Below are positions 2,934 through 5,146 of a stretch of DNA of 64,000 nt, one piece after another. Numbering within the stretch: the first letter of the stretch is position 1; the number at the start of each line of letters is the position of its first letter. Under the pieces are notes generated by a model that saw only the letters and a list, made by a program, of their open reading frames with translations, had not been told where the DNA came from and did not search any database. The DNA comes from a virus. The position numbers and the translations under genes were made by a program. Where the stretch lies: positions 1 to 64,000 of IMG/VR virus record IMGVR_UViG_3300017917_002401; one strand, given 5' to 3'.

Positions 2934-3056
2934 TGCTTGGAATGTGTTGTATTAGTGATGCCCGTTATGCACGGGTGCCTTACCATTAGGCGAATTTTCC
3001 AACGCGGAAAATATAAGAATCGAACTTATGAAGTAACTAATACGTTCGCCAAAGCA
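2934..3056 (-). ncRNA. Y RNA-like element 2 (YrlA-like, permuted tRNA module)
   Basis: GCG-N3-GUAUUAG/CUAAUAC helix, UUACUUC, then T arm (AUAAGUUCGAUUCUUAU), loop-closed acceptor-like stem and D arm (GCCUAAUGGUAAGGC). Confidence 0.8.
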
Positions 3057-3065
3057 AAAATAATT

Positions 3066-3164
3066 AGCCCTAGAAAAATATTAACGGTGACTAGGCATCC
3101 ACTCCTAGTCGGGTGCACAGGTGTGCTATGTTGGTGGAAGTAGCCGTTAAAAACGCAAAGGGCT
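3066..3164 (-). ncRNA. Y RNA-like element 3 (non-tRNA module)
   Basis: AGCCCU/AGGGCU terminal stem, GCG-N3-UUAACGG/CCGUUAA helix, CUACUUC. Confidence 0.7.
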
Positions 3165-3248
3165 TAGATTTGTTGAGGAACAATGCAATACGGAACAGTT
3201 TTCAGCCAATTGAGAAGTAACCGTATCTAACACCATCAACAAATCTAA
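3165..3248 (-). ncRNA. Y RNA-like element 4 (minimal)
   Basis: Long terminal stem, GUG-N3-GAUACGG/CCGUAUU helix, UUACUUC, ~20-nt loop, 3' GUUC. Confidence 0.7.
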
Positions 3249-3318
3249 GCCCTTAGCTTAGAGCCCCACATTCTTGCACCCGGACTGACTACCGGCTTAG
3301 GGTCGTGGGAATTTACCA

Positions 3319-4632
3319 TTACTGGTCTTGACTTTCAAACGCTTGGATATAATCGACAACTGCTTCCGAGAAGCCGTTGATTTCGTTCCAAGCACTATGA
3401 TTCACACCATGCTGATAGCTGGCTACGTTCACCAGGTATCCTTTGCCGCGCGGCGATTGTGGGCGATCATAGCTCTGCTCGTCGGTAAATACGATTACAC
3501 GATCGTAGCTAGTTTGAGCGTCTATTGTCTGCATTGCGTGACCAAGCTGTGTGCCGCCGTGAGGTTGTGAACCACTGATTGCTTCGACTAGTGCGAAGCC
3601 ACGACGAGGAGCAACCCTCTTGGCATCATAGCTAAACGAGTAGATTTCTACTTGTTCGCAGATTTCACGGCAAAGAATTGCCAGTGCTGCGGCCGCGTCA
3701 AAGCGGTCTAGATCACTTTTTGCACTGATTTTGGTTCCGAACATGGAGCCAGAAACGTCAATAACCAGTACAGTCTTGCCAGGCAGCTTTTCCACGCCTG
3801 CAAGTGCTCGGAACATCATTTGTTCCAGCATATCCTCATATTGAGGAACAATGCGTGCCGCCGCAATAAAGCGAAACGGCAGAACTCGTGACACATCTAC
3901 GCGAGTGGCGTACTCACGGATAAGGGAATCCGCAACACCACTTTGTGTCATATTACGCAGATTACGCAAGAAGGCTAGTGCACCTAGTTTATTTTCTTGC
4001 ATAAGGCGTGTGAAAGTTTCACACTTATCAGCGCCAGCGGAGAGCTGTGTTTCCCAAGTATCTGGTGTTTCCAGTGTGTCCGATGCAATTCGCTTGAAAA
4101 GCTCGGCTTGGGCTGCTGACTGCGGTTTAGGGTGTGAAATGAACATAACGTCACGCAATTTGATTGCGGCGTTGTTCTTGTTCCACTTGGCAAGCTGGTA
4201 CTCATTAAACTTGTTGAAACAAGCTGCCAGGCCACGTTTGACCTGATTAGAGACAGCAGTTTTGCCTTCCTGCCAGTAGATGGACAGGAACTCGGACATT
4301 TCGTCCGGACGTTGTACAATATTAGTCAACGTTTGTGCTTGTAGACGACCGTTGCGAGCGAGTTCACGAACAAGCAACAGAGGGATATGACGCAGTTTGA
4401 ATTTGCTGCGTGCACTTTCAGCCAAGTCGGCAACCTTTTCAGGCTGAACTTTTGCTACAAGGTCTCGCACCAATTCAGCGTGGGTTTTACCGTCTAGGTA
4501 GAACTGGTCTTCCCACAGCATGGAAGCTAGTGTAATGCGTTTCAGTTGACGTTCCGCAGTAATGTTAGGTACAAGAGTACCAACACTATTGGCCACACGA
4601 ACGTTGCGAACTGCGCGATTGATGCTTGACAT
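3319..4632 (-). CDS. Ro60/Rsr-like TROVE-domain RNA-binding protein with vWA domain
   Basis: FNEYQLAKW, KLRDVMFISHPKP, TWET.LS, LRNLRNM, LPFRFIAA, vWA DVSGSM and FTDEQ motifs, AAAGGA RBS. Confidence 0.95.
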   Translation of the reverse strand: MSSINRAVRNVRVANSVGTLVPNITAERQLKRITLASMLWEDQFYLDGKTHAELVRDLVAKVQPEKVADLAESARSKFKLRHIPLLLVRELARNGRLQAQTLTNIVQRPDEMSEFLSIYWQEGKTAVSNQVKRGLAACFNKFNEYQLAKWNKNNAAIKLRDVMFISHPKPQSAAQAELFKRIASDTLETPDTWETQLSAGADKCETFTRLMQENKLGALAFLRNLRNMTQSGVADSLIREYATRVDVSRVLPFRFIAAARIVPQYEDMLEQMMFRALAGVEKLPGKTVLVIDVSGSMFGTKISAKSDLDRFDAAAALAILCREICEQVEIYSFSYDAKRVAPRRGFALVEAISGSQPHGGTQLGHAMQTIDAQTSYDRVIVFTDEQSYDRPQSPRGKGYLVNVASYQHGVNHSAWNEINGFSEAVVDYIQAFESQDQ

Positions 4633-4649
4633 TTAAATAAATCCTTTAA

Positions 4650-4782
4650 TAGATAAGAACAAGGCGAAACAGAACGGATAGGGTGCTTCCGGTTACACTA
4701 CAGGTCAATCACGACCCGCTGGGATTCGAACCCAGACTCCCTGATTAGCAGTCAGAAGTAACTGTTTCTTTCACTATACCTA
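4650..4782 (-). ncRNA. Y RNA-like element 5 (classic YrlA architecture)
   Basis: GUG-N3-GAAACAG/CUGUUUC helix, UUACUUC, anticodon-like hairpin, CUGGGUUCGAAUCCCAG T arm, closed acceptor, D arm. Directly upstream of Ro60. Confidence 0.85.
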
Positions 4783-5021
4783 AATTAAACACACTATACC
4801 GAGAATGTTCGAAAACAGTTCTGGAGTTTTTGATTAAAGTGGTTGCTTTACCTAAACCACTTCTTAGATTAAAGTGTATTGCTCACTACCTAGATTAACG
4901 TGAACGGTTTGTATTCCTTAGGCTTCACGGCCGCGACCAATTCGGCGGTATAGTCGTTACATCATAGTACTTTAAGTTATGAAGTAACTGACTTCTGTCG
5001 CTACGGTTAGAGTGTTTAATT
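4783..5021 (-). ncRNA. Y RNA-like element 6 (large effector module)
   Basis: AAUUAAACAC/GUGUUUAAUU terminal stem, GCG-N3 helix, UUACUUC, ~160-nt multi-hairpin insert, 3' AUUC. Confidence 0.7.
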
Positions 5022-5115
5022 TAAGTATAAATTATACTGGAAAAACAGCGAGAGAGCAACTGCAAATTTTCAAATCTGTGTAATGCGATTGCATAACTCT
5101 CTCACCGAAAACAAT

Positions 5116-5146
5116 AATTATACAGGATTTGACACCGTATAACAAG
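5116..5146 (-). promoter_or_regulatory. sigma70-like promoter for the Y RNA/Ro60 operon
   Basis: TTGTTA-N17-TATAAT on minus strand with AT-rich UP tract. Confidence 0.65.

Follow-up and report, generated by a model that had tools for sequence, protein, structure and literature searches.

Conservation of Ro60 and its Y RNAs extends from bacteria to humans. To our knowledge, no role has been assigned to the tRNA-like Y RNAs of bacteria, and we know of no tRNA-like modules in those of animals. What such RNAs might do for a virus is the question raised by a 64,000-nt stretch of DNA, referred to here as the window, in which a Ro60 gene and six small RNA genes (RNAs A to F) lie within an array of 23 tRNA genes, all seven on the minus strand. 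The source is an uncultured phage of ∼90 kb, and the terminase, portal, capsid and tail genes of its 89-kb IMG/VR virus record bear out the label "phage" given in a first-pass annotation. The array also includes several non-canonical tRNA-like genes. In our view the locus probably encodes a phage Ro60 ribonucleoprotein with six paralogous Y RNAs of the YrlA/Yrl type, which share a docking stem and carry inserts that would recruit different partners.

The protein has the architecture of Ro60/Rsr, a TROVE HEAT-repeat ring followed by a vWA domain with a MIDAS motif (DVSGS...T...D). Its ORF matches TROVE (PF05731) at E 1.3e-13, VWA_2 at E 9e-8 and PHROG 850, "RNA-binding protein", at E 6e-38, and the match to vWA_Ro60, 25.4 bits, is slightly below the 27.7 cut-off. 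The closest solved structure is Ro60 of the Thermus phage phiLo (9KOP/9L5Y, E 3e-22), with residues 41-433 aligned to 9KOP, and the closest cultured homologue is that of Ralstonia phage RsoM2USA (56.9% identity). Among 50,697 phage records, just 98 contain a Ro60 homologue.

Table. Features of the Ro60 locus in the window, in order along the minus strand.
Feature	Position	Strand	Description
Distal promoter	5145-5117	minus	sigma-70-like, TTGTTA-17-TATAAT, 10/12; from promoter scan
Leader hairpin	5045-5107	minus	conserved hairpin, then U run; between both promoters; stem covaries among relatives
-10 element	5036-5031	minus	TATAAT, 6-8 nt upstream of RNA F closing stem; read from the sequence; kept in 9/9 related leaders viewed
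RNA F	4783-5021	minus	∼22-bp closing stem; GCGACA bulge; helix AAGUCAG/CUGUUUU (one U-U mismatch)
RNA E	4650-4782	minus	YrlA-like; GUGAAA bulge; helix GAAACAG/CUGUUUC; UUACUUC; GCCUU+GUUC
Ro60/TROVE + vWA gene	3319-4632	minus	437 aa; AAGGA ribosome-binding site 10 nt upstream
RNA D	3165-3248	minus	mini Y RNA; long closing stem; GUGUUA bulge; helix GAUACGG/CCGUAUU; UUACUUC; GCAUU+GUUC
RNA C	3066-3164	minus	GCGUUU bulge; helix UUAACGG/CCGUUAA; CUACUUC; UAUU+UUUC; 49-nt two-hairpin insert
RNA B	2934-3056	minus	GGCGAAC bulge; helix GUAUUAG/CUAAUAC; UUACUUC; AACAC+AUUC; ends 4 nt before tRNA-Trp
RNA A	1213-1329	minus	between tRNA-Gln and tRNA-Asn; GUGUUU bulge; helix AAAUCAG/CUGAUUU; UUACUUC; UGUUU+GUUC

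The six RNAs lie 17 to ∼2000 nt from the Ro60 ORF on its own strand, within the range expected of YrlA RNAs (same strand, up to ∼4 kb), and the order F-E-Ro60-D-C-B...A is retained in close relatives. The single promoter that had been claimed for the array is plausible for F-E-Ro60-D-C-B: the -10 element proximal to RNA F, missed by the promoter scan because its -35 is weak, is likely, as read from the sequence, to mark the start of this transcript. A second promoter-like site lies further upstream (Table), and the claim does not extend to RNA A, which is ∼1.6 kb further on, behind other promoter-like sites. No RNA sequencing run is listed as covering window positions 1000-5300; four runs compared with the stretch, among them one labelled RNA-Seq but flagged as probably DNA, consist of assembled contigs from relatives of 85-99% likeness. 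A leader-peptide attenuator before the array was also considered, as a 20-codon ORF spans the leader hairpin of the window, and was rejected because this ORF is not conserved, relatives having a 7-codon ORF or none.

The first-pass annotation described a Ro60/TROVE gene flanked by RNAs built on one scaffold. All six were found on the minus strand where it had placed them, each folding to a closed stem, and all have the same succession of closing stem, RGYGWW bulge, 7-bp helix, YUACUUC, insert, helix partner, N4-5 and DUUC. The five helix pairs that it quoted are correct, and RNA F supplies the sixth (Table). YUACUUC reads GAAGTARC on the plus strand, and the window has 13 copies of it where 4.5 would be expected, a count reached in 0 of 100 shuffles; exactly six copies lie within the first 12 kb, one per RNA. 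When the full scaffold was scored (at least 6 of 7 helix pairs, N3-6 followed by DTTC, and at least 5 of 8 closing-stem pairs), 5 sites, those of RNAs A-E, passed out of the 30 at which YTACTTC occurs on either strand of the 64 kb. RNA F was borderline, with 6/7 helix pairs and a long bulged stem, and is backed by eight aligned orthologues, which vary in total length from 179 to 247 nt through their inserts and in which 8 of 38 predicted pairs show compensatory changes. The exact GNCGAA-type bulge motif is present in RNA B only (GGCGAACG); in the other five, RGYGWW variants occupy the same place, and the 3' strand of the bulge consists of UUGUUC-like bases.

An Rfam YrlA search and a covariance-model search had both been proposed as checks on these RNAs. 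At the gathering threshold, the Rfam hits in the window were all tRNAs, and 20 related loci gave no YrlA hit. The best YrlA score in the window, 23.3 bits for RNA E, covers model positions 24-84 only and is below the cut-off of 69; scores also remained below the cut-off in all 26 related loci tested, the best being 55.9 bits. Metazoan Y RNA models gave no match at E<=10 in window positions 900-5400. Covariance model R1, built from 18 small relatives, recovered RNAs D (76.4 bits, a member of the training set), A (52.0 bits, E 2e-10) and E (50.5 bits, E 4.7e-10) with default filters and missed B, C and F, so that these three rest on the scaffold script and the orthologue alignments. Switching the filters off gave 10.9 bits for B and 9.6 bits for C and still did not find F, and was worse overall than the default, since A dropped to 17.6 bits, E fell below 10 bits and coding-region noise scored alike; R1 counts were therefore taken with default filters only. 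Despite the sub-cut-off Rfam scores, we take the six RNAs to be Y RNAs of the YrlA/Yrl kind.

The same scaffold accompanies Ro60 in other phages. Of the 38 related phage Ro60 loci, 36 have R1 matches, which without exception lie on the strand of the Ro60 gene and mostly number 2-5 per locus, in agreement with the annotated picture of Ro60-linked Y-type RNAs with a common scaffold and differing inserts; the two loci with no match are L033 and that of Ralstonia phage RsoM2USA. At E<=1e-3 there were 74 matches in 39 sources, all 74 on the Ro60 strand. The visible covariation noted earlier is borne out by the R1 alignment, in which all 14 scaffold pairs change on both sides, 96.9% of cells are paired, compared with 61.5% in shuffles, and the covariation score is 0.952, compared with 0.236 when shuffled and 0.11-0.20 when the partner column is slid, figures that are favoured because the alignment was fitted to R1. 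Compensatory changes were found at 11 of 14 pairs in an alignment of 18 sequences of the RNA D type (A1) and at 26 of 30 pairs in the YrlA-like family that includes the RNA E type (19 sequences), where the T arm, acceptor hairpin and D arm covary; five orthologues of RNA A were also aligned. In the script-based survey of 36 sources (35 loci, three of which duplicate others, and 12 kb of the window), the full scaffold was found at 77 of 111 same-strand YTACTTC sites, compared with 1/36 on the opposite strand, 143/2160 random anchors and 103/1110 shuffled flanks, and the scaffold sites comprise 44 distinct helix sequences.

A scaffold repeated through a tRNA operon might not be a Ro60 ligand at all, and could be a processing or punctuation signal of the operon, or the remains of decayed tRNA genes. 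The units adjoin one another and the tRNAs without spacers, several inserts are tRNA-derived, and one strong intergenic R1 match (L092, 49.2 bits), an unexplained solo match, has no Ro60 gene within 3.5 kb, all of which would fit such a role. We nevertheless regard it as very improbable. Complete genomes with large tRNA arrays show the scaffold beside Ro60 only: in five complete relatives (102-110 kb), every one of the 10 R1 matches lies in the Ro60 locus of 7.3 kb (the genome-wide R1 search yields fewer matches than cmsearch on identical DNA, 2 vs 3 in the phage's own genome, and was used only for the location of matches). The scaffold also adjoins Ro60 in phages with few tRNAs, such as a 43-kb Xanthomonas phage, and the conserved non-tRNA motifs, together with the covariation of every scaffold pair, argue against decay.

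Linkage to Ro60 was also seen from a search blind to the protein, in which a 14-base motif (seed TGGTG-N8-GGTTACTTC) identified 80 loci. A Ro60 homologue lay within 3.5 kb in 28 of these, on the same strand in 27, and among the 19 loci with an R1 match Ro60 was present at 15. Of the motif-seeded loci, 14 passed the scaffold script with no Ro60 gene; in most of these the motif is inside a long ORF (the passes at L060 and L109 are within a tail-protein ORF), and such passes are probably due to chance. The highest Rfam YrlA score among the related loci belongs to Xanthomonas phage 10KY502B (L039 2307-2441), where a full-length YrlA match coincides with an R1 match.

The inserts borne by this scaffold are of several types. 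Those of RNAs B and E are complete permuted cloverleaves, opened at two different points, that of A is a partial tRNA mimic, those of C and D are small, and that of F is long and variable. The YrlA-type permuted module (T arm, sealed acceptor-like hairpin and D arm) is present in E and B, partial in A, and absent from C, D and F. In RNA E, the order is anticodon arm (loop CUGCUAA), T arm, sealed acceptor hairpin and D arm, and part of the RNA scores 27.2 bits against Rfam tRNA, below the cut-off of 29; in RNA B, it is T arm, sealed acceptor hairpin, D arm and anticodon arm (CAU). After un-permutation, ARAGORN called E as tRNA-Ser(gct) and B as tRNA-Met(cat), which, with the partial match of E to Rfam YrlA, supports the presence here of the permuted tRNA-like module that the first-pass annotation cited for YrlA RNAs. 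The native forms of A, B and E gave no tRNA call, and these RNAs are thus not canonical tRNAs. The insert of RNA A contains an anticodon-arm-like hairpin (loop CUGUGAA), a T arm and one further hairpin, and the loop of RNA D is 20 nt long with a conserved UGAAAA. RNA F continues from UUACUUC into an insert of ∼160 nt that varies among relatives, followed by CGAAC and AUUC, and its motif is able to pair into a long local hairpin.

Orthologous scaffolds bear differing inserts across relatives, and the interchangeable modules proposed in the first-pass annotation therefore have evolutionary support. Orthologues of the RNA C scaffold, for example, carry a 24-nt insert resembling an anticodon stem-loop, or a B-type tRNA-like insert, in place of the two hairpins, and in B-type orthologues UUUCAUC replaces UUACUUC.

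Since their acceptor ends are sealed, the tRNA-like RNAs cannot be charged, and they might serve as decoys or sensors: tRNA-like and anticodon-loop-like inserts would mimic the substrates of host tRNA-cleaving defence nucleases, and Ro60 would hold and stabilise the mimics, so that the nuclease is soaked up or reported and the phage tRNAs survive. The position of the locus within the tRNA array is consistent with this, as are the hairpins beside the CUUC junction, 28 distinct sequences of which have anticodon-loop architecture (C32 in 22, U33 in 23, A37 in 21 and A38 in 23). Variation is greatest at positions 34-36 of these hairpins (entropies of 1.67, 1.87 and 1.24 bits, compared with 0.81-1.17 elsewhere), and among the 10 distinct sequences of the family with the 24-nt insert the mean entropy of the middle triplet is 1.29 bits, compared with 0.18 for the rest of the hairpin. 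However, a variable triplet could be merely unconstrained, no nuclease or defence gene is linked to the locus, RNA C of the window has no anticodon-loop insert, and three of the six RNAs (C, D and F) have no tRNA-like part. In addition, none of the literature read ties Ro60 to anticodon nucleases, and the papers listed on anticodon nucleases and phage tRNA decoys include none on Y RNAs, judging by title and abstract. We consider this role unlikely. An elaboration of it, which we likewise hold doubtful, is a counter-defence device in which Ro60 would hold a panel of uncharged tRNA or anticodon-loop mimics, and in which fast evolution at positions 34-35 and the swapping of whole inserts between scaffolds would keep pace with whichever tRNA-cleaving nucleases the present host has. 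Such mimics would act either as decoys or as triggers that route the nuclease or its products to Ro60-bound exonucleases.

Recruitment of partners, the reading that we prefer, has its closest precedents in the known Ro60 systems. Bacteria described by Chen et al. (2014, PMC4201824) have at least two Y RNAs each, one of them tRNA-like, and it is suggested there that further Y RNAs may broaden the range of Ro60 complexes. YrlA and YrlB of Salmonella Typhimurium and Mycobacterium smegmatis (RF02553; PMC4201824) are, like the phage RNAs, encoded within a few kb of Ro60 on its strand, more than one per genome, with a tRNA-like form beside a small hairpin; their ends are likewise closed by a stem, and the module again consists of T arm, sealed acceptor-like hairpin and D arm. 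They are described as processed from a common precursor (PMC4201824), as the phage array may be. Several features of the phage RNAs differ from YrlA: the junction is an invariant UUACUUC where the Rfam consensus is AUGCU, RGYGWW stands in the bulge in place of GNCGAA, the copies number six, the Rfam score falls far short of the cut-off, and RNAs E and B also retain the anticodon arm and thus a whole cloverleaf.

The phiLo system (NAR 2025, PMC12135203; 9KOP, 9L5Y) is also phage-encoded, with Y-like RNAs adjacent to the Ro60 gene. According to that paper, the two Yrl RNAs of the phage are bound by its Ro60 at a stem-bulge-stem that contains CGAA, and PNPase of the host joins protein and RNA in a ternary complex. 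The docking element predicted in the window is likewise a stem-bulge-stem, with the exact bulge motif in RNA B and RGYGWW variants in the other five RNAs. Both phiLo RNAs are simple hairpins upstream of the gene and outside a tRNA array, and the parts of the paper available to us report no tRNA-like inserts. The phiLo effector is supplied by the host. In the record of the window no PNPase-like gene could be recognised, none being found among the 47 window ORFs scanned. RtcB (PF01139) had no match in the 89-kb record, which is 84% complete, and the rsr-yrl-rtcBA linkage is not seen there; the effector, if any, would therefore have to be a host protein. The Rsr-Y RNA-PNPase complex of Deinococcus radiodurans (RYPER) follows the same working model, in which the stem of the Y RNA binds Ro60 and a distal module binds the effector, there PNPase (PMC4201824, PMC12135203), although the RNA sequences are unrelated and the likeness is drawn from literature descriptions. 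Metazoan Y RNAs (the RF00019 family) likewise comprise several paralogues with a conserved, bulged Ro60-binding stem and differing loops.

Since the binding of misfolded non-coding RNAs by Ro60 is established, as is RYPER (PMC4201824, PMC12135203), the phage Ro60 and its Y RNAs might instead act in tRNA quality control, checking the polycistronic tRNA precursors, with Y RNAs gating the Ro60 ring and misfolded or damaged tRNAs being passed to host exonucleases. That the genes for Ro60 and the Y RNAs are interspersed with those for tRNAs, in the window as in most relatives, is in keeping with such a function, and so is the presence of non-canonical tRNA-like genes in the array. It leaves unexplained, however, why there are six different inserts and why relatives exchange them, and we think it quite unlikely.

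We return to a Ro60 particle with exchangeable RNA adaptors, which might operate as follows. The six Y RNAs would be co-transcribed with Ro60 and the surrounding tRNA genes and excised from the precursor, as tRNAs are, to give discrete RNAs. The 5' and 3' ends of each would be closed as a stem-bulge-stem, formed by the closing stem, the bulge (RGYGWW / UUGUUC-like) and the 7-bp helix, and this putative docking site would be the counterpart of the CGAA-bulge site bound by phiLo Ro60; from their genomic linkage, we infer that all six RNAs bind the protein. Past the helix, the invariant UUA-CUUC junction would lead into the variable insert, and the inserts most likely carry Ro60 to different tRNA-binding or RNA-processing proteins, for which host PNPase is the precedent. 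The outcome would be several Ro60 particles with different partners, at a time when the phage floods the cell with its own tRNAs.

Earlier publications have described both a phage Ro60 that has two Y RNAs and the modularity of Y RNAs at large, and the locus described here is a richer form of this known partnership of protein and RNA. Among the matches listed in literature on phage Y RNA, YrlA and Ro60, judged mainly by title and abstract, none describes a phage array of more than two Y RNAs. Supplementary table 5 of PMC4201824 gives one YrlA per phage, and tables of this kind are an undercount. The R1 scaffold model detects such RNAs where Rfam YrlA stays below its cut-off, and its matches in cultured phages whose hosts are harmless, including Caulobacter phage CcrColossus, crAss-like phages of Bacteroides and a Microcystis phage, make recruitment by the inserts, and the part played by Ro60 in phages with tRNA arrays, testable at the bench. 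Because a single Ro60 is here accompanied by six Y RNAs that share a docking scaffold, and because inserts are exchanged among relatives, the lineage amounts to a compact natural experiment.

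The source virus record is 89,127 bp long, with a completeness estimate of 84%, and the window carries terminase, portal, capsid-protease, major tail, tape-measure and tail-fibre genes. Its first 12 kb are transcribed from the minus strand and contain 22 of the 23 tRNA genes called by ARAGORN, and the Ro60 ORF lies within this tRNA array. The encoded protein matches TROVE (E 1.3e-13), VWA_2 (E 9e-8) and PHROG 850 (E 6e-38), with a vWA_Ro60 match slightly below cut-off, and it retains the MIDAS motif DVSGS. Among solved structures, the closest is that of Ro60 from Thermus phage phiLo (9KOP/9L5Y; E 3e-22, residues 41-433). 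Homologues of Ro60 were present in 98 of 50,697 phage records. Elsewhere in the window, one of two further ORFs has an RF-1-type release-factor domain and NTP pyrophosphohydrolase matches and the other weakly matches polynucleotide kinase (E 7e-10); both may serve the phage as accessories in translation or RNA repair.

Positions of the RNA units, the Ro60 gene and neighboring features in the window
Feature	Position	Strand	Remarks
RNA A	1213-1329	minus	
Gene-free stretch	1410-1589	minus	between tRNA-Val and tRNA-Asn; several predicted hairpins, one ~100 nt
tRNA-like gene	2716-2805	minus	acceptor stem, T arm, CUGUAAA loop, long variable region, unusual long D region, encoded CCA end; preceded by TATAAT near 2825
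RNA B	2934-3056	minus	
RNA C	3066-3164	minus	
RNA D	3165-3248	minus	
Ro60 ORF	3319-4632	minus	437 aa
RNA E	4650-4782	minus	
RNA F	4783-5021	minus	
-10-like TATAAT	5036-5031	minus	6-8 nt before RNA F stem; kept in 9/9 related leaders
Second, better promoter match	5145-5117	minus	promoter scan
tRNA-shaped gene	5237-5305	minus	beside tRNA-Met; 7-bp acceptor stem, T arm, CUCAUAA loop, odd D region
ARAGORN 'tRNA-???'	7024-7123	minus	100 nt, four-base anticodon; Rfam tRNA 55.1 bits
Possible accessory ORF	23086-23745		
tRNA-Glu(ttc), second gene	26111-26185	minus	14 kb from main tRNA array
Possible accessory ORF	30715-31296		

The first-pass annotation described a Ro60 gene flanked by five RNAs, with a sixth at 1213-1329, all built on one scaffold, and this was confirmed by folds, by a scaffold test and by related loci. 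On the minus strand each of the six RNAs folds into a closed stem, and the parts follow a common order: closing stem, G-Y-G plus three bases, 7-nt strand, YUACUUC, insert, 7-nt complement, four or five bases, D-U-U-C, and closing stem. The 64 kb contain 13 copies of GAAGTARC, the plus-strand form of the invariant motif, where 4.5 are expected (0 of 100 shuffles reached 13), and the six copies in the first 12 kb fall one in each RNA. The two strands of the window together carry 30 YTACTTC sites, and a scripted test for the full scaffold (helix at least 6/7, N3-6 followed by DTTC, closing stem at least 5/8) was passed by five of them, RNAs A-E. RNA F falls just short owing to a U-U mismatch in its helix and a bulged closing stem of ~22 bp.

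To extend the comparison, a protein-seeded search yielded 35 viral loci with Ro60 43-88% identical to that of the window (L003 duplicates L002, L015 duplicates L014, and L034 duplicates L022). Across the related loci and the 12 kb of the window, the full scaffold was found at 77 of 111 same-strand motif sites, compared with 1/36 on the opposite strand, 143/2160 for random anchors and 103/1110 for shuffled flanks. These 77 instances have 44 distinct helix sequences, and 61 of them pair at 7/7 positions. The consensus from 18 small members has 14 pairs, with compensatory changes in 11, and the R-G of the 5' motif pairs with the C-Y after GUU (GC in 11 members, AU in 7). A covariance model, R1, was built on this alignment; its filters-off scores were erratic and were left unused. 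In the window, R1 scored 76.4 bits for RNA D, which belongs to its training set, 52.0 bits (E 2e-10) for RNA A and 50.5 bits (E 5e-10) for RNA E; RNAs B, C and F were not matched. At E<=1e-3 it gave 74 matches over 39 non-duplicate sources, all 74 on the Ro60 strand, and matches were present in 36 of 38 loci, at one to four per locus and within 3 kb of the Ro60 gene. The covariation of the scaffold was borne out in the alignment fitted to R1, a procedure that flatters the figures: 96.9% of cells pair (61.5% in shuffles), all 14 pairs show double-sided changes, and the covariation score is 0.952 vs 0.236 when shuffled and 0.11-0.20 when the partner is slid.

We also evaluated the linkage between scaffold and Ro60. 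In five complete relatives (102-110 kb, three with terminal repeats), the 7.3-kb Ro60 loci account for 10 of 10 R1 matches. A Ro60-blind search of all viral contigs with the pattern TGGTG-N8-GGTTACTTC returned at least 117 stretches, and 80 loci with flanks were examined. Among the 80 motif-seeded loci listed, a Ro60 homologue lies within 3.5 kb in 28 (27 on the motif's strand), and 19 have an R1 match, with Ro60 present in 15 of these 19. Two of the four R1-positive, Ro60-negative loci lie within a tail-protein ORF on the other strand and one is weak; the fourth, L092, is a real solo case, with an intergenic R1 match of 49.2 bits (3464-3529, minus strand) and no Ro60 within 3.5 kb. Its neighbors include an AAA/SMC-like ATPase. 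An R1 match was absent from thirteen Ro60-positive loci of the 80 listed, eleven of which encode a distant Ro60 with ~24-26% identity to that of the window.

Chen et al. (2014; PMC4201824) described a GNCGAAN0-1G motif close to the 5' end and reported YrlA-like RNAs in 254 bacteria and 22 phages, with one RNA per phage in the phage table; the coordinates of that table for CcrColossus, as converted here, differ from the four candidates that we found in this phage. The Ro60 of phiLo binds two phage Yrl RNAs via a stem-bulge-stem, each CGAA base of the bulge contributes three- to four-fold to affinity, and a ternary complex with host PNPase was shown (2025 study, PMC12135203). The RGYGWW bulge of the window RNAs occupies the same place as this CGAA bulge, and among RNAs A-F the exact GNCGAA-type motif is found only in RNA B (GGCGAACG). 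RNA E matches the Rfam YrlA model only over its core of T arm, acceptor hairpin and D arm and scores 23.3 bits against a cut-off of 69 bits, which was unreached in the window and in all related and cultured-phage loci scanned. Twenty related loci had no YrlA match at gathering, and the top score in six cultured-phage loci was 55.9 bits, in Xanthomonas phage 10KY502B, where the match coincides with an R1 match. This overlap reveals the correspondence of the two models: in the YrlA consensus the helix is followed by AUGCU, and the window-type RNAs have UUACUU at the corresponding place after the 7-bp helix. R1 matches also lie beside Ro60 in Caulobacter phage CcrColossus (2), a Brevundimonas phage, Microcystis phage Mvi-JY20 and a crAss-like phage (2); there was none in Ralstonia phage RsoM2USA. 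On comparative evidence, the reading of the window RNAs as Y RNAs is well supported.

Between the two promoter-like sites ahead of RNA F there is a covarying hairpin and a U run. Units F and E join without a spacer at 4782/4783, as do D and C at 3164/3165, and tRNA-Trp starts 4 nt beyond the end of RNA B. RNA A stands apart from the other five, ~1.6 kb further on, between tRNA-Gln and tRNA-Asn. The spacerless joints point to a processed polycistronic precursor, from which the RNA units and tRNAs would be cut.

The inserts differ among the units. That of RNA E begins with an anticodon-type arm (loop CUGCUAA), whose 5-bp stem borrows CUUC from the invariant motif; a short variable segment, the T arm, the sealed acceptor hairpin and the D arm follow in this order. 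A 19-sequence alignment of this family has compensatory changes at 26 of 30 predicted pairs. The insert of RNA B begins with a T arm and ends with an anticodon-type arm, between which lie the sealed acceptor hairpin and then the D arm, and all four elements are kept in its orthologues. ARAGORN made no tRNA call on either RNA in native order; after a scripted return to normal tRNA order, it called E as tRNA-Ser(gct) and B as tRNA-Met(cat) at default settings. Each of the two inserts is therefore a complete cloverleaf, but the opening point differs: between the D and anticodon arms in E, in the variable region in B. RNA A combines an arm of anticodon type (loop CUGUGAA) with a T arm and one further hairpin, and RNA C has two short hairpins. 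RNA D consists of a 73-nt core whose loop includes a conserved UGAAAA. The ~160-nt insert of RNA F has gained and lost hairpins among eight relatives while the scaffold stayed constant. On the metagenome contig of one relative, 3060 is joined to 3161 with five other letters between, so the whole RNA C unit is missing there.

Inserts have also been exchanged among scaffolds. An A-type insert sits on an E-type scaffold in L011 and a B-type insert on a C-type scaffold in L014, E-type scaffolds carry a mini loop in L008 and a 24-nt anticodon-loop insert in L013, and the C scaffold holds a 49-nt insert in the window vs the 24-nt insert in seven close relatives. In L025 (2060-2198) a Y scaffold encloses a normal-order tRNA core of D, anticodon and T arms (Rfam tRNA 41.3 bits, model positions 6-65), with the 7-bp helix replacing the acceptor stem. 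Hairpins adjacent to the junction (28 distinct) have the loop C32 U33 NNN A37 A38, with entropy peaks at 34-36, and across the family of 24-nt inserts (10 distinct sequences) mean entropy is 1.29 bits for the middle triplet vs 0.18 elsewhere in the hairpin. This pattern is compatible with the idea that tRNA-like and anticodon-loop inserts serve as decoys, but also with the absence of constraint on those bases.

Other non-canonical RNA genes were observed around the array. The tRNA-shaped gene beside tRNA-Met is 91-99% identical across 12 related loci and was called neither by ARAGORN nor by the Rfam tRNA model; the tRNA-like gene with the encoded CCA end likewise had no call from tRNA tools. 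The fold of the 'tRNA-???' gene suggests a loop of the normal 7 nt (CUUAUAC) plus a ~29-nt variable arm. The gene-free stretch, with no RNA family match, is 84-89% conserved in six relatives. Among the relatives, L022 (identical to L034, a complete 109-kb phage genome with terminal repeats) encodes a full-length bacterial class A RNase P RNA (47-368, 148.8 bits) at the head of its tRNA array, 4 kb from Ro60. Permuted tmRNA genes, not found in the window, occur in the tRNA arrays of L004 (7005-7276), L006 (7101-7296), L016 (7189-7368) and L042 (6332-6677), and their carriers include Brevundimonas phage Kikimora.

Phage Ro60 with Y RNAs, tRNA-like Y RNAs and modular Y RNA families have already been published. 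What is new here is a phage-clade scaffold that has invariant motifs of its own and scores below the cut-off of the Rfam model, six Y-type paralogues within one phage, a whole cloverleaf permuted in two different ways, scaffolds that exchange inserts, and a Ro60/Y-type locus sited within a tRNA array.
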